64,000 nucleotides of DNA, taken from the NCBI GenBank assembly GCA_039028335.1, contig JBCCIF010000002.1, forward strand, positions 12,317-76,316. The letters are read 5' to 3'. A program made the position numbers and the translations under genes. Origin of the DNA: Bacteroidota bacterium. GTDB taxonomy: Bacteria > Bacteroidota > Bacteroidia > Flavobacteriales_D > JABDKJ01. The notes under the pieces were generated by a model. That model had not been told where the DNA came from and ran no database searches. It saw only the letters and a program-made list of their open reading frames with translations. Positions 6,092 through 28,537 of the stretch are shown here, piece after piece (within the stretch, counting starts at the first letter, position 1; the number at the start of each line of letters is the position of its first letter).

Positions 6092-7837
6092 TCATTTTCC
6101 TCCGTCCTTTTCTCCACTGCCTTCAGCCCCTTCTTCACCTTCGCCCTCATTAATTCCTTCAGGCGCTAAGTCTTCTACATCCGACTCTTGATCTTCAGAT
6201 TCTTCAATGTCAAACTCTTCTATTTCGAGTTCTTCATCCTCAAATTCACCCGGGTTTACTTCAGGATCCTTTTCTTCTTCACAGTCCATGCATTCCAATC
6301 CTGTCTCGGTCATAATCCAATAATGCCCGATCATGTCCCCATCCCACATATTCAAATTGTTGGGAATATCATGAATAATTCTACGCATACTTCTGTCGAG
6401 AAAAACACTTTTGCCCACAGGAAGACGGAGAATCAAATCCACTTCCTGATTGCGAATAAGATCACTGCGTTTGAATTCCATATGCGAATCAAATATGACT
6501 TTGTCATTGTTCTGACTCCAATTGTATGTGATGTTCTCAATTCGCTCCTTCGCATCTCTAGAATCAAAGCCATTGCTTGATTTCCGAATCTGCAATTGAA
6601 CAATACTGTCTTGTGTGCTCTTGAGAATCGTGAACTCAACATGCCCAAAAGACACGTTCTCTTCGTCTAAACCAATGAGTCCATTTCTGCGAAAATTTCT
6701 GTACTCTTCTGTATGGGTATTGCTCATCAATTTCAAACTATTCCCATTCCATTCTAAGTCTTCAAATTGCTCGATAGTCTCGCTGCGTTTATGGAGGGAA
6801 TTGACTTTTAGTCCAGAGTAAATGGTCAAGCCCATTCCCGTCATGAACATGATTAAGAGACTCCCTCCGATCATTTTTGAATTGGATTTGATCTTGAAAA
6901 CCAATTTCAAGCCCAAATAAATGAGCGCTATTAAAGGAGAGAATACGAGCATCACTATACCCAATGTCATGAGTGAAGAGATGCTCGAATCTCCGATAAA
7001 CAAGTCCTTAGCATCTTTCAATGAAAATACATTAAGCCCGTTATCGTGCCATGCAAAAACCTCAGGATCAAAAAGCGCGATAGAAAGAGCGACCAAAGCT
7101 ATCATCGCCCCGATCAAAAACACGGCTCCAATGATTTTACCGATAAACCTAAATATGGAAAAGAAAATACTCATAATTCCACCAAAAAACCTGCTAAAGC
7201 CATTCTTCACGTTTTGTGCACGCGCAGATCTAGAAGAATGGTTCTCACCCTTTCCCAGCAGAGCGTCAATACCTTCGTCAACTACTTTTTTAATGTTTTC
7301 TACCGTGACCGGCTCACCATGCATCATAATTTTCTCAGCAGTGGTTTCTGCCTTAGGAATTACAATCCAAAGGATGATATAAGCTACAAAGCCAAATCCA
7401 CCAAACACGAAGAGGAGAATCAGGATAATTCTCAACCAAACAGGGTCCCAACCGAAATAATTGGATAAACCTGCACAGACACCACCGATTAATTGATTGT
7501 CGGGATCGCGAAAAAGTCTTCTTCTCTTTCGACCCTTTTTCGTATAAGTCGTTTCAACGGGTTCTTCGCTATCTTCTCCGATGTAGTCTTCTGGACGCCC
7601 CATTATACGGATCACTTTTTCGACATCATCTGAGTTAATGACTTCTTTGCGGTCATTGATGTTTTCTAAAAACAACTCGCCTATTCTTGCTTCGATATCC
7701 GCTATCACTTCATCGGCTCCTTCGGAGTTATTGAGGTACTTGCGAATGCGATCGAGATAATTATTCAATTTCTCAAAGGCCTGCTCTTCAATATTGAAGA
7801 TTAAACCATTTATATTAACTGATACTGTCTTGTTCAT
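6092..7837 (-). CDS. PspC domain-containing membrane protein with an acidic C-terminal tail
   Basis: 581 aa. PspC motif LFRDPDNQLIGGVCAGLSNYFGWDPVWLRIILILLF, several TM segments, and a Glu/Asp-rich C-terminus. It overlaps the upstream PadR gene by 4 nt. Confidence 0.85.
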   Translation of the reverse strand: MNKTVSVNINGLIFNIEEQAFEKLNNYLDRIRKYLNNSEGADEVIADIEARIGELFLENINDRKEVINSDDVEKVIRIMGRPEDYIGEDSEEPVETTYTKKGRKRRRLFRDPDNQLIGGVCAGLSNYFGWDPVWLRIILILLFVFGGFGFVAYIILWIVIPKAETTAEKIMMHGEPVTVENIKKVVDEGIDALLGKGENHSSRSARAQNVKNGFSRFFGGIMSIFFSIFRFIGKIIGAVFLIGAMIALVALSIALFDPEVFAWHDNGLNVFSLKDAKDLFIGDSSISSLMTLGIVMLVFSPLIALIYLGLKLVFKIKSNSKMIGGSLLIMFMTGMGLTIYSGLKVNSLHKRSETIEQFEDLEWNGNSLKLMSNTHTEEYRNFRRNGLIGLDEENVSFGHVEFTILKSTQDSIVQLQIRKSSNGFDSRDAKERIENITYNWSQNNDKVIFDSHMEFKRSDLIRNQEVDLILRLPVGKSVFLDRSMRRIIHDIPNNLNMWDGDMIGHYWIMTETGLECMDCEEEKDPEVNPGEFEDEELEIEEFDIEESEDQESDVEDLAPEGINEGEGEEGAEGSGEKDGGK

Positions 7838-8169
7838 CTTTTCAGGGTTTTGGTGGTTTTTTTAACCGCGTTTTCTAATTCTGACCATGTCATGTGTAAT
7901 TCTGATAAAAACTTCTCGCCTTCATCCGTAAGGCGATAATATTTTCTCGGTGGGCCCGATTTAGATTCCTCCCACCTATAGGTAAGTATTCCCGCATTCT
8001 TCAAACGCATCAACAAAGGATAAATGGTACCTTCTACTACAATGAGTTTGGCGTCCTTGAGCTCTTGGAGAATATCCGAAGGATAGGCTTCCTGAGCCTG
8101 TAAAATGGAAAGAATACAGTATTCCAATACACCCTTTCTCATTTGTGCTTTTGTATTTTCTAATTTCAT
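7834..8169 (-). CDS. PadR family transcriptional regulator
   Basis: 111 aa with VLEYCILSIL...YPSDILQEL...EGTIYPLLMRLKNAGILTYRWEES...PRKYYRLTDEG, a classic PadR winged helix. Confidence 0.9.
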   Translation of the reverse strand: MKLENTKAQMRKGVLEYCILSILQAQEAYPSDILQELKDAKLIVVEGTIYPLLMRLKNAGILTYRWEESKSGPPRKYYRLTDEGEKFLSELHMTWSELENAVKKTTKTLKR

Positions 8170-8181
8170 TTTTGTCTTTTT

Positions 8182-8418
8182 TTAATGAATGACAAAGTCA
8201 TAATTGGTACTTGGACTTGAATCCATTGCTTCAGTGGACTTTACTTCTTCCGTCTTATCAACCCGCTCAATTAGCCCAGAGATATTCGGAACGCGATAGC
8301 GTTTCTTTTCGACATTTTGAGCGGCCTCCGGCTTGAACAGCAATCCGAGAAGAACGAGTGCAATAAAACCTGCCGAAGTCCACTTCAAAAATGTGTATGT
8401 GTCTTGATCGTGTCTCAT
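8182..8418 (-). CDS. small single-pass membrane protein (hypothetical), first gene of the PadR-PspC operon
   Basis: The ORF-track entry runs 8182..8490. ATG at 8416-8418 (MRHDQDTYTFLKWTSAGFIALVLLGLLF...) is the more plausible start and gives one TM helix. Confidence 0.45.
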   Translation of the reverse strand: MRHDQDTYTFLKWTSAGFIALVLLGLLFKPEAAQNVEKKRYRVPNISGLIERVDKTEEVKSTEAMDSSPSTNYDFVIH

Positions 8419-8653
8419 AATTATTAATTGACTATACAAATATATATCTTTTACTTGGTACTTTGCATTACATATTACTATAATTTTCAAACAAATGTTG
8501 TGTTTGGAGTCCTTTTCGTGACAAACGGTCCAGACTTTGTGTGAAAGGTTTTTAAAAATGTGGATAAGAAAAACAGGCTTATTTCGTTTAAAGAAAAAGA
8601 TATATCTACTTTAATCGAATCAACAGTACCTTTTAATTTAACGCAGCACACTA

Positions 8654-9013
8654 ATGATGAAAGCACTGTATTTGTCAGATACTGACGCAAGGCGAGCCGC
8701 TATTTCTCGTCTATTGGAACAAAAAGATATTGCCTTTGAACGCGTAGATAATGTCACTACCGCATTGCGTACTTTAATGACCTCTCGTTTTGAACTAATT
8801 ATAAGCGAATTGAGGCTGAAAGATCTTGACGCCTATGACCTCATTAAATTAATGAGGAAGTTCAATTTGAATCAACCGGTCATTGTACTAGATGATGAGA
8901 CAAATGATCTTGAAAGAGCCCTGGTGCAAAACGAAGGTGGTTTCGATCTCGTTAACTCAAAGGATCTGGAAAATTTATCGACTGCAATTGAAGAAGTATT
9001 GATTCTGGCTTAA
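8654..9013 (+). CDS. orphan single-domain response-regulator receiver-like protein (atypical)
   Basis: 119 aa with CheY-like alternating beta/alpha periodicity (KALYLSDTD ... [24 protein letters not shown] ... PVIVLDDE ... FDLVNSK). Glu52 sits where the phospho-acceptor Asp is expected. Confidence 0.65.
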
Positions 9014-19835: not shown

Positions 19836-20480
19836 TTAAAAATCCTTCCCTTCCCATTCTAAGATAAAGCGATCGAGATAATCTAGCAGATAAGCATGAC
19901 GCTCTTCTGCAATACGTTTACCTTCTTTTGTGTTCATTAAATCTTTAAGCAATAAAAGTTTCTCGTGGAAATGATTGATAGTGCTCGTTTTTGCATTCTT
20001 ATACTTTTCAAAACTATCAAAAAACTGAGCCTTCAGATCTGGGTCAAAAATGGCTTGACCTTTTTTTCCTCCATATGCAAAAGTGCGCGCCAATCCAATC
20101 GCTCCAATGGCATCTAAGCGATCGGCATCTTGAACCACCTGTGCTTCTAATGAGCTTGGTTTTGAGTTGACTCCATTGCCCTTGAAAGAAATCTCATCGC
20201 ATGCACCTTCGAAAAATTGGACTTCTTGTTTCGGCAATCCCAATTCTTCAATAAGCCTTCTGGCGTGTCCGCTTCCTTCAATTAGCTTGTAGTCATCCAT
20301 CTCATGCAGCCATGCAATGATTTCACATTTCATCACATCAGCATGCTCACTTTTGGCTATGTGTTTAGACAGCTTTACGACTCGTTGAATGTGAAAATAG
20401 TCATGGCCTGATGTATCGCTTTCAAAACGCTTTTTGACGCGCTCTTCTATGGTTCTAATTAATTCTGTGTTAATGATCAC
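19836..20480 (-). CDS. HD domain-containing phosphohydrolase
   Basis: 214 aa with GHDYFHIQRVV ... WLHEMDD ... VQDADRLDAIGAIGLARTF, the metal-binding pattern of the HD superfamily. Confidence 0.85.
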   Translation of the reverse strand: MIINTELIRTIEERVKKRFESDTSGHDYFHIQRVVKLSKHIAKSEHADVMKCEIIAWLHEMDDYKLIEGSGHARRLIEELGLPKQEVQFFEGACDEISFKGNGVNSKPSSLEAQVVQDADRLDAIGAIGLARTFAYGGKKGQAIFDPDLKAQFFDSFEKYKNAKTSTINHFHEKLLLLKDLMNTKEGKRIAEERHAYLLDYLDRFILEWEGKDF

Positions 20481-20542
20481 AACCCTCTTAAAATAAGTTC
20501 GTTAAAGTTTAGATATTTCTATGGATTTAGCGATATTCGCGC

Positions 20543-20559
20543 TCCCAAAAATTTTGGGA
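20543..20559. promoter_or_regulatory. perfect 17-bp palindrome TCCCAAAA-A-TTTTGGGA in the divergent HD-gene/rpsP intergenic region
   Basis: Read directly from the sequence. It lies 63 nt from the HD-gene start and 68 nt from the rpsP ATG. Confidence 0.3.
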
Positions 20560-20626
20560 CTCGATAGAAATCGAAAAATAAACAAATTAGTTAACCGGGT
20601 TTAGGACCCTTTTAAAAGAATTAATA

Positions 20627-21637
20627 ATGCCTACAAAAATCAGGCTTCAGAGACACGGAAAGAAGCGTTACCCTTATTATTATATCGTAGCCGTAGACGG
20701 CAGAGAAAAGAGAGATGGAAAGTACATTGAGCGTTTGGGAGAATATGACCCGAACACCAACCCAGCGACTATTAATCTCGATTTTGACCGCGCACTTTAT
20801 TGGTTGCAAGTTGGTGCTCAACCAACAGATACCATGCGAGCTATTTTGTCATACAAAGGAGTGATGCATAAAAATCACTTGTTGAATGGAGTCAAAAAAG
20901 GTGCATTCTCAGAAGATGAAGCAGAAAAGAGATTTGCTTCTTGGATGGAAGAGAAAGAATCTAAAATTAAAGCGAAAAGAGAAGGATTGATTGCTTCTGC
21001 AGATGCTGAATTGGCCGAAAGAATGAAAGCCGAAAAAGCCATAGCAGACAAACGAAGTGCTGAAATCTTGGCTAAGCAAGCTGCTGCTGCAGGTGTTATT
21101 GCTGCCGCTGCTGCTGGAGAAGCAGAAGATGCCGCTGACGTTGCAGATGAAGCAGGTGATATTGCAGAAGATGCTGCTGAGCAAGCAGAAGCCATGGCTG
21201 ATGTAGCCGAGGCTGCTGCTGAAGATGGCAATGCAGAAATCGCTGCCGAAGCTGCTGAAGCTGCCGAAGAAGCTGCTGCCGTTGCTGAAGAAGTTGCTGA
21301 AGTTGCGGAAGACGCGGCAAAAGAAGCTGAAACTGCGGCTGAAGCTGCTGCTGACATCGCTGAAGAAGCGACAGAAAAAGCTGAAGAGGCCGTTGAAGCT
21401 GCTGCTGAAGAAGGAACAGCTGAAGCTGTTGAAGCTGCTGAGAAAGCAGTAGAAGCTGCGGATGCTGCAACCGAAGCTGCTGAGGAAGCAGCTGAAGATG
21501 CTGCAGAAGCGAAAGAGGATGCAGAAGAAGCAAAAGAAGATGCAGAAGAAGCTGCAGAGGCCGCTGAAGATGCTGCTGAAGCTGCCGCTGAAGTAGCAGA
21601 AGAACAAGCCGAAGAGGCTGCTTCTGAAGAAGAATAA
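20627..21637 (+). CDS. rpsP: 30S ribosomal protein S16 with a long Ala/Glu-rich C-terminal extension
   Basis: The N-terminus MPTKIRLQRHGKKRYPYYYIVAVDGREKRDGKYIERLGEYDP...ALYWLQVGAQPTDT is canonical S16. Residues ~151-336 are low-complexity A/E sequence. Confidence 0.9.
   Translation: MPTKIRLQRHGKKRYPYYYIVAVDGREKRDGKYIERLGEYDPNTNPATINLDFDRALYWLQVGAQPTDTMRAILSYKGVMHKNHLLNGVKKGAFSEDEAEKRFASWMEEKESKIKAKREGLIASADAELAERMKAEKAIADKRSAEILAKQAAAAGVIAAAAAGEAEDAADVADEAGDIAEDAAEQAEAMADVAEAAAEDGNAEIAAEAAEAAEEAAAVAEEVAEVAEDAAKEAETAAEAAADIAEEATEKAEEAVEAAAEEGTAEAVEAAEKAVEAADAATEAAEEAAEDAAEAKEDAEEAKEDAEEAAEAAEDAAEAAAEVAEEQAEEAASEEE
21077..21637 (+). repeat. low-complexity degenerate GCT/GAA-rich coding repeat (Ala/Glu tail of S16)
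   Basis: Reiterated gaagctgctgaagaagc-type units. The region is open in several frames on both strands, which explains the long antisense ORFs in the ORF track. Confidence 0.7.
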
Positions 21638-21642
21638 TTTTT

Positions 21643-22164
21643 ATGGCCTTCGAAGGACATTACTATATAGGTAAGGTCGCTAGGCTATACAGTTACAAGG
21701 GAGAACTCTACATTCGATTGTATGTAAAGGACCCTGAAATGTATTTAGAAATGGAATCAATGTTCCTTGCTATTGAAGGGGAATTGGTTCCATTTTTTAT
21801 TGAATCCATCCAATTTGGATCCAAAGGGATGCTGCGTATCAAGTTCGAAGATGTTGACAACGAAGCAGAGGCTAAAAAACTTGTAAAAAAAGAAATCTTT
21901 GCGCCTAATTCATTTCTTCCCAAGGAAGAAGGAGAATTTCATGGTCATGAAATTCTAGGCTTTTTGGTCGTTGACCAAAAAGACGGTGAATTGGGAAATG
22001 TAGAAGATGTCATCGAACACAGCAGTAATCCGCTCATTCGTGTTGATCAGGGAGAACGCGAAATCCTTATTCCTTACCAAGATGAATTTATTATTGAAAT
22101 TAACTCTTCAAAAAAAAGAATTGAAGTTGATTTACCTGAAGGATTGATTGAGATGAATGACTAG
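21643..22164 (+). CDS. rimM: 16S rRNA processing protein RimM
   Basis: 173 aa, immediately downstream of rpsP (conserved synteny). It has a PRC-barrel-like C-terminus (HGHEILGFLVVDQKDGELGNVEDVIEHSSNPLIRV...EILIPY). Confidence 0.9.
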   Translation: MAFEGHYYIGKVARLYSYKGELYIRLYVKDPEMYLEMESMFLAIEGELVPFFIESIQFGSKGMLRIKFEDVDNEAEAKKLVKKEIFAPNSFLPKEEGEFHGHEILGFLVVDQKDGELGNVEDVIEHSSNPLIRVDQGEREILIPYQDEFIIEINSSKKRIEVDLPEGLIEMND

Positions 22165-22212
22165 TACTCATCTATATTTATTATTATTGAATCCTTCCCC
22201 TCGTCATTAAAA

Positions 22213-22911
22213 ATGATCTTCCGCTTCAAACAATTTTCTGTCAAACATGAAAAGTCGGCAATGAAAGTTGGCACAGATGGAAATTTAATTGGAGCATGGA
22301 CAGAAGTTGAAGAAGCGAGAAAAGCATTGGATATTGGAACAGGCTGCGGATTGCTTGCTTTAATGTTGGCGCAAAAAAAATCAGAACTCTTTATTGATGC
22401 TATCGATATCGACAAAGCGGCAATAGAAGAAGCCACGGAGAATGTAGAGAACTCCCCTTTTAACCAACAAATAAACGTAATTGAAAGTCGATTTGAAGAT
22501 TGGTCCTCTTCGAATAAGTATGACCTCATCATTAGCAATCCCCCCTTCTATCATCAACAGTATGACGCAAAAGGGGAGAGCCGAATTCTTGCTCGACAAG
22601 GCTTAATAGATTGGAAGGACTGGCTCCCAAAAATTTCAGAACATCTTTCATCAGCAGGTCGATTCTCGTGCATCTTTCCGATTGATCAATTGGAAGAGGT
22701 GCTTCTTCGAGCCGAAAAATCTGGCCTTTTCCCCTTGAGAATCACACATATTAAACCTAAATCACATTTACCTCCACATCGAATTGCACTTTCTTTATCC
22801 ACATCTGATGAAGAGGTTCAAAAGGATCAACTGATCATCGAAAAAAAAGAAAGACATTCTTACACCCCAGAATATAAGGCCTTACTGAAAGATTACCTTA
22901 TTATATTCTGA
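22213..22911 (+). CDS. SAM-dependent methyltransferase, tRNA1(Val) (adenine37-N6)-methyltransferase-like
   Basis: 232 aa with FRFKQFSVKHEKSAMKVGTDGNLIG, SAM-binding LDIGTGCGLLALMLAQ, and the N6-adenine MTase motif DLIISNPPFY. Confidence 0.8.
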   Translation: MIFRFKQFSVKHEKSAMKVGTDGNLIGAWTEVEEARKALDIGTGCGLLALMLAQKKSELFIDAIDIDKAAIEEATENVENSPFNQQINVIESRFEDWSSSNKYDLIISNPPFYHQQYDAKGESRILARQGLIDWKDWLPKISEHLSSAGRFSCIFPIDQLEEVLLRAEKSGLFPLRITHIKPKSHLPPHRIALSLSTSDEEVQKDQLIIEKKERHSYTPEYKALLKDYLIIF

Positions 22912-23027
22912 TAATCTCCGCAAGGGAACTTTTTGATTTAATCGCCCTAGGGATTCAGAATATTACCCATTTGTCGAAACAAAAAATTTCTACTTCAGTA
23001 TAAGCAAGCAACCTAATAAACCTATTT

Positions 23028-23909
23028 ATGTTCAAAATACTATCCACACTATTGTTCGTATGCCTTATTAACCAAGGGCAAGCAGCAGAAAATATTTATG
23101 AACCGAAAGAGGAAAAGAAAACCTCTGAGGAAGTATATACAATCAATGTCAGCACGTCCGGTGTTGCCATTTCTCCTTCACGTGTACGATTTAATGTAAT
23201 GCCTGGTAAGTCGAAGACTCATCAGATTAAAATCAATAATGATACTGAAGAGGCCAAGGCATTTCGTGTAAAATTCAATGACTTTAACATGAACCAGTTC
23301 GGTAAAAGTCAATTCGTAGAACCCGGTAATGGTAAATATGGAATTTCCAATTGGGTAAGTGTTTCTCCATCATTTATTGAAGTGGCCCCCGGTGAGAAAA
23401 AAGAAGTCACCATTACCATTGATGTTCCCGATGACGAAGCGGGAAAAAAAGCAGCTTGGGGAATCATGATGATCGAAGAAGCAGCAGAAAGAAAAACACT
23501 TGAATACGACCAGAACAACAGCGACCAAATTTCATTTGGTATCGTTCCTACTCTGGCTTTTGGCGTTTTTCTTTATCAAAACCCTCCCGGTGTTTCAACC
23601 AATGAAGTTGAAATTCAAGATTTTTTAATTGAACAAAAAGATGAAAACTATTTTGTCAACATAGATGCGAAGAATGTAGGCACTGGAATTGCCTATTGCA
23701 AAGCTTATGTTGAATTAACCAACTTGAACAACGGTGAACAAGAGAAACTTTTGGTGAAATCTTTCACCATCGTTCCCGACCTCACCCGCGTTTTCAGTTT
23801 TGAACTACCCGAACATTTGAAAAACGGAAAGTATTCTGCTGTAGGGGTCATAGATTATGGCAACCAAGAGGAAATCGAAGCAGCGGAATTAGAATTTGAG
23901 ATCAAATAA
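23028..23909 (+). CDS. secreted two-Ig-domain protein, PapD-like pilus-chaperone candidate
   Basis: 293 aa with a signal peptide (MFKILSTLLFVCLINQGQA|AE). VAISPSRVRFNVMPGKSKTHQIKINNDTEEAKAFRVKF and VSVSPSFIEVAPGEKKEVTITIDVP resemble the PapD_N pattern (..tRviy....l.v.N....p..vq.w / tPPlfrlePg..q.vRi). A second beta-rich domain follows. The gene is confident. The function is inferred. Confidence 0.55.
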   Translation: MFKILSTLLFVCLINQGQAAENIYEPKEEKKTSEEVYTINVSTSGVAISPSRVRFNVMPGKSKTHQIKINNDTEEAKAFRVKFNDFNMNQFGKSQFVEPGNGKYGISNWVSVSPSFIEVAPGEKKEVTITIDVPDDEAGKKAAWGIMMIEEAAERKTLEYDQNNSDQISFGIVPTLAFGVFLYQNPPGVSTNEVEIQDFLIEQKDENYFVNIDAKNVGTGIAYCKAYVELTNLNNGEQEKLLVKSFTIVPDLTRVFSFELPEHLKNGKYSAVGVIDYGNQEEIEAAELEFEIK

Positions 23910-23954
23910 TTTTTATAAAACAAATGTTTACTAAACCCTTTAAAATTTAATGTT

Positions 23955-24737
23955 ATGAGAAAGTTGAAACTTATGATGTTGGCGGTGGTTGCAGGATTCT
24001 GCTTCCAGACGGCAAACGCACAGTTGATTGATGAGCAGGATGTAACGATTACAATGGAATTACAGCCAGTTCTTCAACTTGACATGAAAACCCCAAACCA
24101 GCTCGAATTTGTATTCGATGAAATTGAAGAGTACTACAGAGGTATTACTCAGTATGCAGCTACAGAATTAAAAGTAAGCTCAAGTGTATCTTGGGACCTT
24201 TATGCTGTAGGTAGATCTAATGGAACGAATTGCGCTGAGTGCTGGGACCAACAATTGGTTTACGGTTCTGGAGGTGTAACTTCTGGAGCACAAGCAAACT
24301 TACCTATGAGTCTTGTAGAATTGAGACAAAACAGAGCTAACTCTGGAGCAGGTGTTGCAACTAGTTTCCCAGATTACAACCAAGCATTCTCACCAGCAGC
24401 TACTGCTTCTGGAGGAAACAGCTTGTACGTAAACGGTGGTACTAATACACCTCCTGGTGTAAACGGTAAGTATATCGCAGGTCACTCTGGAACATCTGGT
24501 ACTCCTGGTACTGATGCTATGGTTGGTGGTTCTTGGATGACTCAAACTGGAACAGCATCTGATTACTACTACACAGTTGATTACAGAATTTTACCTGGTC
24601 TTCCTGCTATTTTCCCAATGGCATTTAACGAAGATGGGGTAACAGCTGAAGATTTATCTACAGTTTCTGCGACTGCTTATGCGCAGCCAGGTGTCTATAC
24701 AATGTACGTACAGTACGTATTGTTGGAAGACCAATAA
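23955..24737 (+). CDS. secreted Gly/Ser/Thr/Ala-rich subunit-like protein (candidate major fibre subunit)
   Basis: 260 aa with a signal peptide ending ANA|Q. The mature N-terminus has alternating hydrophobics (DVTITMELQPVLQL). The C-terminus is QPGVYTMYVQYVLLEDQ. A strong hairpin terminator follows the stop codon. Confidence 0.55.
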   Translation: MRKLKLMMLAVVAGFCFQTANAQLIDEQDVTITMELQPVLQLDMKTPNQLEFVFDEIEEYYRGITQYAATELKVSSSVSWDLYAVGRSNGTNCAECWDQQLVYGSGGVTSGAQANLPMSLVELRQNRANSGAGVATSFPDYNQAFSPAATASGGNSLYVNGGTNTPPGVNGKYIAGHSGTSGTPGTDAMVGGSWMTQTGTASDYYYTVDYRILPGLPAIFPMAFNEDGVTAEDLSTVSATAYAQPGVYTMYVQYVLLEDQ

Positions 24738-24746
24738 AAAGAATTA

Positions 24747-24787
24747 TCAAAGCCGGCTGAAGTCAGTCGGCTTTGAATTTTTTCTTT
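24747..24787 (+). terminator. rho-independent terminator/attenuator between the two subunit genes
   Basis: A 13-bp stem, tcaaagccggctg (24747-24759) paired with cagtcggctttga (24764-24776), contains one G-U pair and a 4-nt loop aagt. It is followed by atttttctttc. Confidence 0.7.
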
Positions 24788-24805
24788 CACCTTAAACTAT
24801 TTTTA

Positions 24806-25420
24806 ATGTCACCTTTAAAACAAACCATAGTCGGTCTTTTCCTTCTACTAGTTTTGCCATTCAGTGCTCAGATTCACTGTGGCAATGTCGAGTTGAGCGT
24901 TGATGGAAGCACCAATGCTATGATTACTTTCGATGATTTTTCGAAGTATAATGGAGGTGTAACATTAAACAATGCACTTACGCTCAGAGTAAAAGTCGAT
25001 CACCAAGCTGTACCGGATCCCGATTGCAGTTGGTTCCTTAACATGGAAGTATTTAATAATCCTGGAGCAGGAACACCCATCGATGAATGGGAAGAATTGT
25101 TTCAATACGGAAGTGGAAGCTCTGACAATCCAGATCTAGATATTCTTGAAATTAGAATTCGCAACACATGCGCTACGTCTCCTTTAAACGGGACATTTCA
25201 GACCTTTACCAATAACGGTGATATTATGGATATCATTCAATCCATGTTACCTGTAACGCCCGCAGGTTCATGTACAAGCAATGTAAACGGTCCTGGAGAT
25301 TTCAATACCAATTATGATGAATTCACATTCACCGTGGATATTCGAGTGCGACCTACGCTCAATTACAATCCCGGTATATATGAAATGAGTGTGCGTTTTC
25401 ATCTTGAAGAAAACCTATGA
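24806..25420 (+). CDS. secreted subunit-like protein, paralog of 23955-24737 (candidate minor subunit)
   Basis: The ORF-track TTG start (24773) lies inside the terminator stem. ATG 24806 gives MSPLKQTIVGLFLLLVLPFSA|Q. It shares ITFDDFSKYNGGVT and C-terminal NPGIYEMSVRFHLEENL with the upstream subunit and has four Cys residues. Confidence 0.55.
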   Translation: MSPLKQTIVGLFLLLVLPFSAQIHCGNVELSVDGSTNAMITFDDFSKYNGGVTLNNALTLRVKVDHQAVPDPDCSWFLNMEVFNNPGAGTPIDEWEELFQYGSGSSDNPDLDILEIRIRNTCATSPLNGTFQTFTNNGDIMDIIQSMLPVTPAGSCTSNVNGPGDFNTNYDEFTFTVDIRVRPTLNYNPGIYEMSVRFHLEENL

Positions 25421-25432
25421 TCTAAGCCAACC

Positions 25433-28400
25433 ATGAAAAACATTTACCTTAAACTCTTTTTGGCTTTTCTTCTGCTTTTAAGCGTATCTTTTGTTAGCGC
25501 ACAAACAGAAGAAACAGCATTCCCCATTGACTCACTCAATCAGATCATTGACAACTCTACAGATACTATTCCTACTCAAGAAAATACGCCAGTAATTTCA
25601 AACACAGAAGAGCAAGTACAACCCTTTGTTAATCAAGACAGCCTAAACATCAAGCCTCCAAAAATGAACCGAGGTATTGAAATTTCTTTCGCCAAATCCG
25701 AACTAAAACCTGAAAGTGGCGAAATTCTTTCAAATGTTTTAAAAATTGTCAATCACAATACAGAGGCAAAAATCATCCTTCCAGAATACAACCATCCCGC
25801 TTCCTGGAAACTCGTAGGACAAAAGGATGTATGGTATGAAATTCAAGCAAACGATACCATTTATGTGCCCGTTCGAATCATTCCTCAGGCTATCGCTTCA
25901 GGGCAATCAAATTATCAAATAAATGTATTTATCTATAATGATAAAGGCATACAAATCCTAACTGATCATTTCAATTGTGTTACAGATAAAACTGTGCAAT
26001 GGAATGTACAGAATAGCGATGACAAAATTTACTTTAAGCATGGAGAAAACTGGGAGGATTTATCTTTCAACATCTCTAATACTTCGGTTTTTCCACAAGA
26101 GATTTTCATGACAACTGCTGCCGCTAAAGGCAGTTTGGCATTAAGTCGTGATGGAGAAGAGCTTGAAGAAGGTGAATCAAGCACTTTTCAATTGGATTCA
26201 TTTGAGGATACAACATTTACCTATACAGCGACTATTGACAACCTCCGAAGAAACTTCAGACGCGTTTCACTGCTTGGACACATTCCAAACAGAAACAATC
26301 AAACGAGAAGGTATTCAGTATACATGAATACACAAGAAACAAAGTCTGTTGGTCAAACCGATTATAGAAATGGATCGAAAATAGATCTTATAAAACTGGC
26401 CAATGTTTTGAGAGCTACTGAATACAGCTCAAACGATTTACCTCTTGATGTTCAAGCTAACTATCAGAATATTTTAGGTGACTTTCCTTTTCTGTCCATC
26501 AACATGAACGGATACAAGAATTTGAATAACGATGCCAGTTTAAACTACTTTACTCAACTTAATTATAACCAAGTCTTTTGGAATGCACAGAACTTGGGAA
26601 ATATTCCATGGTATTTAGGTTATTTTTCGAGAGAATGGACAGCACAAGCTGGAAACATCAATGGAGGAATCGTAGGAATGCCTGCTGTTGGAAAAGGTGT
26701 AAAAGGATCTTATTTCATAAATCCTCAGCACGAGGTAGGAGGATTCTTTACCTCTTCAAAAGGATTTCTTCAAACCGGTCATACTGACTCATACGGTATT
26801 CATTATCAATACAATTTCCCAAATAATGGCTTTGTCATGGGAAAACTCGGACGTTATACAAATGGCCTGAATGGCACATCTGGTAACGTATTAAGTGTGC
26901 AATCAAGCTACCGTCTCGCTGAAAAACACAGTATCGGAGCATTTGGAGGATTCAGTACGAGAAACTTCTTATGGGGAGGAATCATGACACCTCAAACAGG
27001 AGGACTATTCGGCCTCAACTATACTTCTCGATTTCTTGAAAATAAATTATTTGTGAATGTGGGAGGTCGATACAATTCCAAATTCTTTGGAAACTCGACA
27101 ACTGAAATCCTTACTTCAGACGCTAAAGTACAATATGAAATCAGCAATAAATGGTCAGTATTCTATTCTGGAAACTATGCAAATATTGATGCATTTAATC
27201 CAGCTACGGCATTCTTCAATCCATTTTCGAGCTATGATTTTTTCCAGAACAGAGTCGTTTTCACAACGACAAATAGATGGGGAACATTCAACCCAGGATT
27301 GTACTATAATTTCAATAAATTCTTCGATTACAATGTACAAGCAAGAGGACTCTCTCTTCGTTTTTCAAGATTGAATTATTTGAAGAACACTTTGCTTTCC
27401 TTTTACTCAGAAGCAGGATATACAGATAATAGAGGTCAAAGCGAAATTGGTGACTATTTCAATTTCAGAATGAATATGTTGTACCGAATTCGAACCTTGA
27501 CCTTAACAAGTAATTATCGCTACGGTGCCAACAATAAATCAGCACAAGATTATCAAACGGCTACCGGACAAGCGCCTCAGTTGGGAAGAATTAGCGCTTC
27601 ACACCAATACCTGTTCAACAATCAACATTGGATATTGGAAACCAACACCTCTTATACGTACAACAATCGATTTAAATCACAGTTCTTAGGAATTTTTCCC
27701 GAGCTCTTTTACTTCTCGAATAGTGGATGGAGATATAGTATAAACCCTGGATATACCGTAAGTATTACCAATTACAATGCTGATCTACTCAATCTCTATC
27801 AGAATGTGCCAATTAATTCAGATGATGTTGGAAGTAATGTAAACAAGGGATTTAGATTGAATGTTTCAGCAAGAAAAACCTTTGGAATTCCTATTCCATT
27901 TGTTAAACCACAAAATTCAAATATTTCCTACAACACCTTCTATGATTTGAATGGAAATGATGTACAAGATAAAGGAGAAACTGCTGTTCCCAATGTCGTT
28001 CTAAAGCTCAATGACTACGAAGTTCTTACAAATGACAATGGTTTTGCCTTGATCGAGAACTTGCCGCATGAAACGTATTATTTGCAATCATTCCCACTTG
28101 AAGATATGCAAGGTTGGTTTGCAAAGGTTCCAGATTCACTGGTAATTTCAACAGACATGATTATTCAAATCCCATTCGTAAGAGGAGTAAAAGTAATGGG
28201 AGATGTCATTTTGAATAGACAAGAAATAGCCGTTACAGATGAAAGACCTTTTGATTTATCCAATATCAGAGTTTCTGCAAATGACGGCAATAAAGTCTAC
28301 AGCACGCTTACTAATTTTGACGGTTCATTTGACTTGTATCTTCCAAACGGAAACTATACTTTGACAATTGACGAAAATATATTGGGAGACAAGTATTCTT

Positions 28401-28537
28401 TGCTTCAAAATAATATTGAACTTGACTTAAATAGCGAAATGGAAAACGTGTACACAAGTTTCTATATCGTAGAAAAAGAAAGAAAAGTGAAAGTCAAGAA
28501 GTTTGGTTCACAAGGAACAATCATCAAAAGAAACTAG
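25433..28537 (+). CDS. large secreted outer-membrane protein: N-terminal Ig-like region, Tyr/Asn/Gly/Phe-rich beta-barrel-like core, two C-terminal SdrD-B/carboxypeptidase-regulatory-like domains (usher-like candidate)
   Basis: 1034 aa with a signal peptide (LLLLSVSFVSA|QT). The core, ~aa 300-830, has amphipathic beta-strand periodicity. The C-terminus has YDLNGNDVQDKGETAVPNVVLKLNDYEVLTNDNGFALIENLPHETYYL and a second NFDGSFDLYLPNGNYTLTI module. Confidence 0.5.
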   Translation: MKNIYLKLFLAFLLLLSVSFVSAQTEETAFPIDSLNQIIDNSTDTIPTQENTPVISNTEEQVQPFVNQDSLNIKPPKMNRGIEISFAKSELKPESGEILSNVLKIVNHNTEAKIILPEYNHPASWKLVGQKDVWYEIQANDTIYVPVRIIPQAIASGQSNYQINVFIYNDKGIQILTDHFNCVTDKTVQWNVQNSDDKIYFKHGENWEDLSFNISNTSVFPQEIFMTTAAAKGSLALSRDGEELEEGESSTFQLDSFEDTTFTYTATIDNLRRNFRRVSLLGHIPNRNNQTRRYSVYMNTQETKSVGQTDYRNGSKIDLIKLANVLRATEYSSNDLPLDVQANYQNILGDFPFLSINMNGYKNLNNDASLNYFTQLNYNQVFWNAQNLGNIPWYLGYFSREWTAQAGNINGGIVGMPAVGKGVKGSYFINPQHEVGGFFTSSKGFLQTGHTDSYGIHYQYNFPNNGFVMGKLGRYTNGLNGTSGNVLSVQSSYRLAEKHSIGAFGGFSTRNFLWGGIMTPQTGGLFGLNYTSRFLENKLFVNVGGRYNSKFFGNSTTEILTSDAKVQYEISNKWSVFYSGNYANIDAFNPATAFFNPFSSYDFFQNRVVFTTTNRWGTFNPGLYYNFNKFFDYNVQARGLSLRFSRLNYLKNTLLSFYSEAGYTDNRGQSEIGDYFNFRMNMLYRIRTLTLTSNYRYGANNKSAQDYQTATGQAPQLGRISASHQYLFNNQHWILETNTSYTYNNRFKSQFLGIFPELFYFSNSGWRYSINPGYTVSITNYNADLLNLYQNVPINSDDVGSNVNKGFRLNVSARKTFGIPIPFVKPQNSNISYNTFYDLNGNDVQDKGETAVPNVVLKLNDYEVLTNDNGFALIENLPHETYYLQSFPLEDMQGWFAKVPDSLVISTDMIIQIPFVRGVKVMGDVILNRQEIAVTDERPFDLSNIRVSANDGNKVYSTLTNFDGSFDLYLPNGNYTLTIDENILGDKYSLLQNNIELDLNSEMENVYTSFYIVEKERKVKVKKFGSQGTIIKRN

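Follow-up and report, generated by a model that had tools for sequence, protein, structure and literature searches.

The window analysed in this study, a 64,000-nucleotide stretch of DNA from a Bacteroidota bacterium, carries on its plus strand four genes, hereafter C, A, B and U. Gene C (23028..23909) encodes a secreted protein of 293 aa with a predicted two-domain Ig-like, PapD/WxLIP-like chaperone fold; gene A (23955..24737) encodes 260 aa and is, by homology to the TLP-1a/b protomer, a putative major fibre subunit; gene B (24806..25420) encodes a putative minor paralog of A of 204 aa, which appears to possess the cleft strands without the N-terminal donor strand; and gene U (25433..28537) encodes a predicted outer-membrane protein of 1034 aa, for which we propose a role as an usher-like assembly or secretion platform. 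Directly after the stop codon of A lies an intrinsic-terminator-like hairpin with a T run (24747..24786, plus strand), consisting of a 13-bp stem and a 4-nt loop. Both ORFs of the initial annotation, A and B, were confirmed. An alternative ORF of 215 aa, with a TTG start at 24773, exists for gene B; since this TTG falls inside the terminator hairpin and the deposited annotation gives 204 aa, we take the ATG at 24806 as the start of B. Besides this pair, no copies of A or B are present elsewhere in the window, and Pfam and NCBIfam searches placed neither protein in a family, the sole match being a chance one to FusB (E 0.065).

Over residues 24-258, A aligns with residues 2-236 of the PDB chains 9ikk_A (E 3.3e-42) and 9ikj_A (E 4.2e-41). 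These chains belong to TLP-1a/b (PDB 9IKJ/9IKK), fibrils from Tsinghua Lotus Pond water that were solved by cryo-EM in 2024 through CryoSeek (PMC11494351). The fibrils are 8-nm tubules in which donor-strand exchange joins the protomers: the Ig-like domain of protomer n is made whole by the N-terminal strand beta1 of protomer n+4, which slots in between its beta2 and its C-terminal beta7 (PMC11494351); because the donor is n+4, the tubule is made of four separate exchange-linked chains. The authors obtained no matching sequence by metagenomics or mass spectrometry, named no host, species or assembly route, and reported no significant match of the pilin fold among solved pilins (PMC11494351). 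In the literature searched, no later paper uses the TLP-1 name, and a paper on cyanobacterial tubular pili does not mention the A family. In A, a signal peptide (residues 1-22) ends at an A-x-A↓Q signal-peptidase-I-type site, giving a mature N-terminus at Q23, and the alignment with TLP-1 sets in just past the predicted cleavage site, pairing L24 of A with residue 2 of the mature chain as deposited. Within this alignment, QLIDEQDVTITMELQ of A pairs with LISEQNVTVTMDLQ of the 9IKJ/9IKK chains, that is, with the N-terminal beta1 donor strand after the signal peptide; the donor strand of A is thereby placed at approximately residues 29-36 (DVTITMEL), and the C-terminal cleft strand at residues 245-258. 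Judged by this alignment, A is homologous over its full length to the protomer of the TLP-1a/b fibrils and is assigned as the main building block of a tubular surface fibre. Identity between TLP-1b and members of the A family is only 37-44 %, which places the pond fibril in a sister lineage, and the helical geometry of the A fibre could differ from that of pond TLP-1.

The A family comprises 712 homologs, none of which is named or has a Pfam domain. The termini are conserved in other genomes, contrary to the refuting condition named in the initial annotation: across 82 sequences, mean column identity is 0.89 in the N-terminal strand and 0.94 at the C-terminus, compared with 0.67-0.76 in the loops. 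The initial annotation had interpreted conserved termini as the interfaces of polymerising subunits, and this view is supported, because the segments it flagged correspond to the exchanged N-terminal strand and to the strands lining the acceptor cleft (beta1, beta2 and beta7 of TLP-1), and a gene with a chaperone fold lies just upstream. Its suggestion of an Ig-like fold minus the final strand was correct in that a strand is missing; this strand, however, would be supplied by the N-terminus of another subunit and is not a final strand. The single Cys pair (NCAECW) is present in the A protein of the window but is not a feature of the family, being restricted to the closest relatives of the window, with NGPEFW in most homologs.

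According to their family profiles, A and B are true paralogs with an N-proximal block and a C-terminal strand in common, as had been claimed from the letters of the two translations. Pairwise BLASTP is marginal, yielding one HSP (E 0.001, 28 % identity) that pairs A 54-124 with B 42-117 (53-128 in the numbering of the 215-aa ORF) and covers the N-proximal block but not the termini, whereas profile-profile alignment of 26 A homologs with 30 B homologs by hhalign is significant and full-length (probability 96.7 %, E 4.5e-10, 177 columns). The hhalign register pairs FVFDEIEEYYRGIT with ITFDDFSKYNGGVT and PGVYTMYVQYVLLE with PGIYEMSVRFHLEE. The B family shows an 11-residue deletion opposite IDEQDVTITME of A, and VELSV of B pairs with LQLDM of A; an HMMER alignment of B to 9ikk gives an identical register, at a direct E of only 0.22. 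Equivalents of beta2 and beta7 are retained, without beta1, in all 30 aligned B homologs. The alternating hydrophobic strings near the N-termini of A and B had been regarded as equivalent, which proved incorrect: VELSV corresponds to the second strand of A (LQLDM) and not to DVTITMEL. Because the N-terminal donor strand is missing, B is expected to accept a strand but to be incapable of donating one, in the manner of a tip subunit, and we propose that B is a minor, cap-like subunit that ends the chain as its tip or initiator. The idea that A and B are both polymerising subunits thus survives with respect to their paralogy, but B, lacking the donor strand, could act only at the end of a chain. 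The B family has 105 homologs; in all those aligned, the mature N-terminus is Q-I-H-C-G, and the four Cys residues already recorded for the 204-aa protein are invariant; conservation is even along the sequence (column identity 0.58-0.67). The signal peptide of B ends at an A-x-A↓Q signal-peptidase-I-type site with no lipobox cysteine.

The product of gene C carries a signal peptide but neither a lipobox nor a membrane helix at its C-terminus; the chain stops just after domain 2 (ELEFEIK), without a hydrophobic tail. Its domain 1 matches the Pfam family WxLIP_PGBD (DUF916, PF06030; E 5.4e-9, 36.6 bits against a cut-off of 27.3), which was also matched at E <=0.1 by 36 of 39 C homologs; weaker matches were to MSP, ASH and Cep192, and WxLIP_HBD was without a significant match in C and was matched by one of 79 relatives. 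The AF2 model of C (pLDDT 90.7, pTM 0.79) consists of two beta-sandwich domains. When this model was compared with the PDB by Foldseek, the top match was WxLIP of E. faecium (3.5e-13, both domains), followed by approximately 40 chaperones of chaperone-usher systems (1e-10 to 1e-8) aligned over approximately 250 columns and both domains; these included CfaA, Caf1M, PapD, CsuC, FimC, CupB2, YadV, FaeE, EcpB and DraB (E 4e-10 to 4e-8), with TM scores normalised to the target of 0.5-0.6. The model thus confidently indicates that C adopts the two-domain Ig-like boomerang fold of periplasmic pilus chaperones. At the sequence level, C of the window matched neither PapD_N nor PapD_C in Pfam, and both are absent from the 25 most frequent of the 49 families matched by 38 close C homologs; PapD_N was weakly matched by six of 79 distant relatives, the best at 3.2e-4. 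Comparison of the C family with E. coli FimC by hhalign was not significant (probability 1.5 %), and neither sequence nor profile searches of C against the PDB returned anything significant. Conservation in the C family is highest in the motif PT(F/L)AFGVxxYQNPP (residues 174-187), which follows a loop of 25 residues and forms the final strand of domain 1; by analogy with PapD-like chaperones, strand 177-184, which occupies the G1 position, is a candidate donor for the subunit cleft.

For U, the model comprises a signal peptide, two N-terminal beta-sandwich domains, a barrel at approximately residues 292-837 and two C-terminal Ig-like domains. This AF2 model is moderate (pLDDT 74.2, built from 12 sequences); DSSP counts approximately 26-28 barrel strands in it, and a plug domain is not evident. 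Its top Foldseek matches in the PDB are FimD (4.6e-11, 5.8e-11) and PapC (1.9e-8), over approximately 830 columns but with TM scores of only 0.2-0.35, and other large barrels, namely, MtrB, TonB-dependent receptors and LptD, are matched as well. U matched none of Usher, PapC_N and PapC_C in Pfam at E up to 1, the sole Pfam matches being CarboxypepD_reg and SdrD_B, in the C-terminal part and below the cut-off. A profile of 37 U homologs found nothing significant in the PDB, nor did a sequence search, and hhalign of the U family against E. coli FimD was not significant (probability 0.8 %). On the basis of the model, U is predicted to form a large barrel in the outer membrane, flanked by Ig-like domains.

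The four genes occur in the order C-A-B-U in 73 of 81 fetched Bacteroidota loci, which span Flavobacteriales, Chitinophagales, Sphingobacteriales, Bacteroidales and others. B follows A in 75 of the 81 loci and U follows B in 74, with a median gap of 5 nt; in the 74 fetched loci that carry B, C is also found upstream of A. Cultured carriers include Pseudotenacibaculum haliotis KCTC 52127, Flavicella sediminum, Wenyingzhuangia heitensis DSM 101599 and W. aestuarii DSM 105044. Two distant C-like proteins (25 % and 23 % identity) adjoin homologs of U (hhalign 99.8 % and 99.6 %), and at one such C-like/U-like locus a small neighbouring protein matches the A profile over the donor-strand region (hhalign 90.6 %). 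From these sequence comparisons, the C/U module appears to be older than the A family. Clustered at 50 % identity, the C family yields 1723 representatives, and a C-like/U-like module with other small subunits may be present in many more lineages.

Two features of the locus bear on the expression of A. The share of T-ending codons for Gly, Ala, Thr and Ser in A is the highest among the 45 ORFs of the window (0.54), followed by that of ribosomal protein S16 (rpsP; 0.51), and all other ORFs are at <=0.39 (B, 0.29); the preference of A for GGT, TCT, GCT and ACT, noted by eye in the initial annotation, is therefore real. The hairpin after A folds at -24.7 kcal/mol (z -5.86) and occurs once in the window, which rules it out as a repeated element. 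A hairpin with a T run follows A in 46 of 62 related loci, compared with 0/62 after C, 0/62 after B, 2/61 after U and 0-1/62 within genes; the hairpin sequences vary between loci, and the position is kept. We propose that the hairpin acts as a partial terminator or as a 3' stabiliser of the mRNA and thereby fixes the ratio of A to B and U. Together, the conserved terminator hairpin and the ribosomal-like codon use indicate a large excess of A, and they fit a highly expressed major subunit. A sigma-70 scan found fewer sites than in shuffled sequence and none in the region upstream of C, and the Bacteroidetes -7 motif TAnnTTTG had no plus-strand match from 20016 to 24849.

We consider it probable that C-A-B-U builds a TLP-1-type tubular pilus on the Bacteroidota cell by a chaperone/usher-like route. 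All four proteins, each carrying a signal peptide, would be exported by Sec. In the periplasm, C would bind A and B and fill their open cleft with a strand of its own, for which PT(F/L)AFGVxxYQNPP is the candidate, and U would receive the C-subunit complexes at the outer membrane. As B has the cleft and is missing the donor strand, it would be the first subunit to enter and would close off each chain distally, in the way of FimH and PapG in classical pili. A would then be added by donor-strand exchange, the incoming DVTITMEL displacing the chaperone strand in the preceding subunit, and the partial terminator and codon use would make A far more abundant than B and U. The finished fibre would be an 8-nm tubule of four exchange-linked strands, most likely serving in adhesion or in matrix building on particles. 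Some observations speak against this scheme: a four-chain n+4 tubule is not obviously explained by a single-pore usher that handles one chain, C and U fall outside the classical sequence families, the U model is moderate, and the loss of the donor strand in B is alignment-based.

A different, though unlikely, explanation is that A is a self-assembling secreted matrix fibre, similar to TasA or the archaeal cannulae, which polymerises outside the cell by donor-strand exchange, without chaperone-usher catalysis; U would then be no more than an export pore or anchor, C would be a WxLIP-like surface adaptor for holding or presenting subunits, and B would be a nucleator or anchor. The closest relative of C in sequence and fold is indeed WxLIP and not PapD, and WxLIP is described in the literature as an adaptor at the surface, with a beta-hairpin strand that is proposed to enter its partner (PMC10599100); C, however, has neither a membrane helix nor a lipobox and thus cannot be anchored in the WxLIP fashion, and its model matches dozens of true periplasmic chaperones over both domains. 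TLP-1 fibrils occurred free in 0.22-µm-filtered water (PMC11494351), donor-strand fibres formed without a chaperone are known in TasA and cannulae, and an n+4 four-chain build would be difficult to thread through one pore; nevertheless, the strictly kept gene order C-A-B-U, in which B and U almost touch, fits a dedicated assembly machine, and the best structural matches of U are ushers.

Quite unlikely, in our estimation, is a pilus assembled as we propose in which B, rather than forming the distal tip, anchors or terminates the fibre near the cell or plugs its lumen. The role assigned to B is deduced only from the missing donor strand, and its four invariant Cys residues and even conservation suggest a specialised, rigid module; a cleft without a donor strand, however, fits only the chain end that presents free donor strands. 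In characterised chaperone-usher pili such as Fim and Pap, that end is in every case the first-assembled, distal one, and classical terminators such as PapH retain a donor strand, which counts against B as a terminator. It is very improbable that A and B are ordinary non-polymerising secreted beta-sandwich proteins whose likeness to TLP-1 implies no fibre. The fibre is predicted here from genes and identity to TLP-1 is only about 40 %, but the homology is full-length (E 1e-42) and includes the donor strand and both cleft strands, which are the most conserved parts of the A family, and the fold needs a strand from another subunit (PMC11494351).

Extending the chaperone/usher-like pilus that we favour, we tentatively entertain the somewhat doubtful possibility that C-A-B-U encodes an unrecognised, phylum-wide pilus pathway of Bacteroidota, analogous but not detectably homologous by sequence to chaperone-usher, in which the chaperone is WxLIP-kin and U builds a hollow tubule from four donor-strand-linked chains simultaneously, with four B subunits to initiate it. 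The window provides the orphan TLP-1 fold with a concrete gene family and with a conserved operon from which a route of fibre assembly can be proposed; it also predicts a tip or initiator subunit, beyond what the TLP-1 structure could reveal, and the cultured carriers make a genetic test possible. If the model is true, Bacteroidota would have a second strand-exchange pilus system besides type V pili, and Gram-positive WxLIP proteins would be linked with periplasmic pilus chaperones. It also raises the question of how an outer-membrane pore assembles a four-chain n+4 donor-strand tubule.

Among known systems, WxLIP (DUF916-DUF3324-TM, from WxL loci of Firmicutes; PDB 9I1Y, 9I25) resembles C in that domain 1 of C passes WxLIP_PGBD and WxLIP is the top structural match, but C has no transmembrane helix and no significant WxLIP_HBD. 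Unlike in WxL loci, no WxL-domain protein is encoded next to C, the bacterium is Gram-negative, and an outer-membrane partner belongs to the operon; a WxL locus was rejected, as C has no membrane tail and Pfam gives no match for A or B. The pilins of type V are synthesised as lipoprotein precursors, mature by proteolysis and exchange a C-terminal strand. Type V pili (FimA/Mfa) occur in the same phylum and are likewise strand-exchange fibres, whereas the signal peptides of A and B are ordinary, neither protein matches FimA/Mfa in Pfam, and the donor strand of A is N-terminal; a type V pilus was ruled out by the A-x-A↓Q sites without a lipobox cysteine and by the absence of the FimA/Mfa family. 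A TasA/camelysin fibre was rejected as a classification. TLP-1 and A are alike in their mature N-terminus, N-terminal donor strand and C-terminal cleft strand; the published work came without gene, organism or accessory proteins, whereas this locus offers the gene, the paralog B and the neighbours C and U.

Comparison with the classical and archaic chaperone-usher pili (Fim, Pap, Caf1, Csu, CupE) reveals both differences and likenesses. C and U lie outside the PapD_N, PapD_C and Usher sequence families, and the host phylum here is Bacteroidota. The strand donor is n+1 in those pili, as opposed to n+4 in the four-chain tubule of TLP-1. The usher combines a barrel of 24 strands and an internal plug with one periplasmic domain at the N-terminus and two Ig-like domains at the C-terminus, whereas U, in its moderate model, has two N-terminal domains, no evident plug and a seemingly larger barrel. 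The likenesses are donor-strand exchange between Ig-like subunits, the two-domain periplasmic chaperone fold (predicted for C), a large barrel with flanking Ig-like domains (the best PDB matches of U being FimD and PapC, with poor superposition), a minor subunit without a donor strand (FimH and PapG there, and B here by alignment) and an internal terminator after the major-subunit gene.

Over its whole mature length, the product of gene A, the putative major subunit among the four consecutive window genes C, A, B and U (chaperone-like, major subunit, minor paralog and usher-like, respectively), matched two PDB entries, 9IKK (TLP-1b; E 3.3e-42) and 9IKJ (TLP-1a; E 4.2e-41). TLP-1a, like TLP-1b, is a fibril that was detected by cryo-EM in filtered Tsinghua Lotus Pond water; both are 8-nm helical tubules whose lumen measures 15 Å, in which the N-terminal beta1 of protomer n+4 enters protomer n between beta2 and the C-terminal beta7 and completes its Ig-like domain (PMC11494351). 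According to the authors of that study, metagenomics and mass spectrometry both failed to reveal the protein or its species; they saw no similar fold among experimental structures and noted unannotated AlphaFold models from Flavobacteriales; operons, chaperones and ushers are not discussed there (PMC11494351). We found no later use of the TLP-1 name in the searchable literature. The alignment starts with residue 2 of the deposited chain at L24 of A, which confirms Q23 as the mature N-terminus. By sequence, A thus joins the TLP-1 fold family as a new member, and because it is homologous to the TLP-1 protomers, its conserved termini are the donor strand and the strands lining the acceptor cleft. 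TLP-1b shares only 37-44 % identity with A-family members (approximately 200 sequences compared), whereas none of these falls below 56 % identity to the window protein; given this distance, either a sister lineage is the source of the pond fibril or the sequence read from its density contains errors.

All four genes, C (23028-23909, 293 aa), A (23955-24737, 260 aa), B (24806-25420, 204 aa) and U (25433-28537, 1034 aa), lie on the forward strand between ordinary housekeeping genes: rpsP, rimM and a methyltransferase gene on the 5' side, and a convergent saccharopine dehydrogenase gene on the 3' side. Each product begins with a signal peptide, with A-x-A/Q-type cleavage sites in A (TANA/QLIDE) and B (PFSA/QIHCG), neither of which contains a lipobox. 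In the deposited annotation of this MAG ("Bacteroidota bacterium"), A (AAF487_00660) and B (AAF487_00665) are both "hypothetical protein". The ATG at 24806 agrees with all homologs of B, and the alternative TTG at 24773 (215 aa, mechanical ORF list) falls within a terminator hairpin. As a side observation, the S16 protein encoded by rpsP (20627-21637) carries an Ala- and Glu-rich C-terminal extension of approximately 250 residues, its Pfam domain covering residues 9-67 only, and the repetitive GC-rich DNA gives rise, on the opposite strand, to long ORFs that are spurious.

A scan for relatives of A, with one genome per species, was positive in 165 genomes, and 81 loci were analyzed (80 fetched from the scan and one look-up locus). 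The order C-A-B-U was found in 73 of them, the remainder being contig ends or orphan second A copies. The hosts include Flavobacteriales (Crocinitomicaceae, Salibacteraceae, Vicingaceae and Flavobacteriaceae), Chitinophagales, Sphingobacteriales, Bacteroidales and one Chlorobiota MAG; among the cultured carriers are Pseudotenacibaculum haliotis, Flavicella sediminum and two Wenyingzhuangia species. In several C-A-B-U MAGs there is also an orphan second A (57-59 % identity to the window protein), which has neither C nor B nor U in its vicinity (L057 8001-8780, L058, L061, L072 and L075); in L057, its neighbors encode a 2OG oxygenase, a PMT-type glycosyltransferase, GNAT, an Na/Ala symporter and SecA. 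The orphan A genes are among the best matches to TLP-1b. Among the fetched loci, only that of a Bacteroidales MAG (L049) has the major subunit gene twice, in the tandem order C-A-A'-B-U (7148-7933 and 8001-8774), and in the Chlorobiota-labelled MAG (L076, 8786-10189) the A-B gap is 1357 nt instead of the usual ~75 nt, which suggests an inserted gene or element.

Pairwise BLASTP of A against B was marginal (single HSP, E 0.001), containing the N-proximal block and leaving the termini outside. Profile alignment of the A family (26 homologs) with the B family (30) by hhalign gave a probability of 96.7 % (E 4.5e-10) over 177 columns that span the signal peptide through to the C-terminus; at the profile level, this identifies A and B as paralogs. 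It pairs the N-proximal and C-terminal blocks as proposed in the initial annotation, except that NVELSV of B aligns not with DVTITMEL but with the next strand of A, PVLQLDM. The predicted conservation of termini in other genomes was borne out for A (82 sequences), whose mean column identity is 0.89 in the N-terminal strand and 0.94 at the C-terminus and 0.67-0.76 in the loops; in B it is even along the sequence (0.58-0.67). All four Cys of B are invariant among aligned homologs, and the NCAECW pair of A is limited to its nearest relatives. The suggestion that such termini belong to polymerizing subunits gains support from the solved fiber, where they correspond to the donor strand that is exchanged and to the strands of the cleft.

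The profile alignment leaves a gap of 11 residues in B, precisely across IDEQDVTITME of A. An independent HMMER alignment of B with 9IKK gave the identical register, ungapped up to the shared block, and every B homolog has Q-I-H-C-G-x-V directly after the signal peptide. B thus appears to keep the cleft-lining strands and to lack the donor strand; such a subunit would accept but could not donate a strand, so that its only chain-ending position would be the end presenting free donor strands.

Gene C matched Pfam WxLIP_PGBD above cut-off, and MSP, ASH and Cep192 more weakly; it has 1723 relatives among 1.84 billion cluster representatives (50 % identity clustering) and no membrane helix. Its AlphaFold2 model (78 relatives; pLDDT 90.7, pTM 0.79) is confidently two-domain. 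The top Foldseek match in the PDB was WxLIP of Enterococcus faecium (3.5e-13), followed among the top 50 mostly by periplasmic pilus chaperones aligned over both domains (CfaA, Caf1M, PapD, CsuC, FimC, CupB2, YadV, FaeE, EcpB and DraB). The most conserved motif, PT(F/L)AFGVxxYQNPP (G171-P187), follows a 25-residue loop and forms the final strand of domain 1, probably where PapD-like chaperones carry their G1 donor strand. Family, sequence and profile searches gave no informative match for U. In its AlphaFold2 model (12 sequences, pLDDT 74.2), the signal peptide is followed by a disordered linker and two N-terminal sandwiches, then by a barrel of roughly 26-28 strands, with two Ig-like domains at the C-terminus. 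The best Foldseek matches were the ushers FimD (4.6e-11 and 5.8e-11) and PapC (1.9e-8) over ~830 columns, with TM-scores of only 0.2-0.35; MtrB, TonB-dependent receptors and LptD also match. By hhalign and, for C, the family matches of its homologs, neither protein belongs to the classical chaperone or usher families. The U linker (25433-25660, residues 22-74), ~50 Thr/Gln/Asn/Pro-rich residues, precedes the first folded domain, and in most homologs the alignment starts no earlier than about residue 80.

Distant C-like proteins from other metagenomes (25 % and 23 % identity) adjoin U homologs (hhalign 99.8 % and 99.6 %) in clusters that also hold small secreted proteins, one of which matched the A profile at 90.6 % in the donor-strand region; the order is small secreted protein, U homolog, C-like protein (L083 3413-8983 and L085 3138-7753). 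These pairs suggest that the unannotated class of such modules is much larger and imply that the chaperone-like/usher-like pair is older and broader than the A/B family. L083 also has a 387-aa protein after the cluster and a sigma-54 activator with sensor kinases upstream.

A hairpin with a T run (24747-24786; 13-bp GC-rich stem, -24.7 kcal/mol, z -5.86), unique within the window, lies 10 nt past the A stop codon. Hairpins of unrelated sequence with a T run follow A in 46 of 62 related loci, C and B in none of 62 and U in 2 of 61 (inside genes, 0-1 of 62). The B-U gap is nearly abutting (median 5 nt). As anticipated by eye, A has the highest share of T-ending Gly/Ala/Thr/Ser codons among 45 window ORFs (0.54), ahead of the sole ribosomal protein gene (0.51) and all the others (at most 0.39). 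Together, these features fit a large excess of A over B and U.

We propose that C-A-B-U encodes a chaperone/usher-like pathway, for which we infer all binding and assembly steps: in the periplasm, C would cap A and B at their clefts, U would serve as the outer-membrane platform, B would begin each chain and A would join by donor-strand exchange. The main difficulty lies in the n+4 exchange, which implies that each tubule consists of four independent chains; an usher handling a single chain leaves this unexplained. U might be oligomeric, or four B subunits might form a cap. Self-assembly, with U merely a pore and C an adaptor resembling its top structural match, WxLIP, seems to us unlikely. Under the proposed pathway, the operon, for which we found no prior description in the searchable literature, is a chaperone-usher-type assembly variant in Bacteroidota that is new as a whole. 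FimH and PapG, the first-assembled tip subunits of classical chaperone-usher pili, accept a strand and donate none; B would resemble them as a strand acceptor lacking a donor strand, and a major subunit probably made in large excess relative to B and U likewise recalls classical fimbrial operons.
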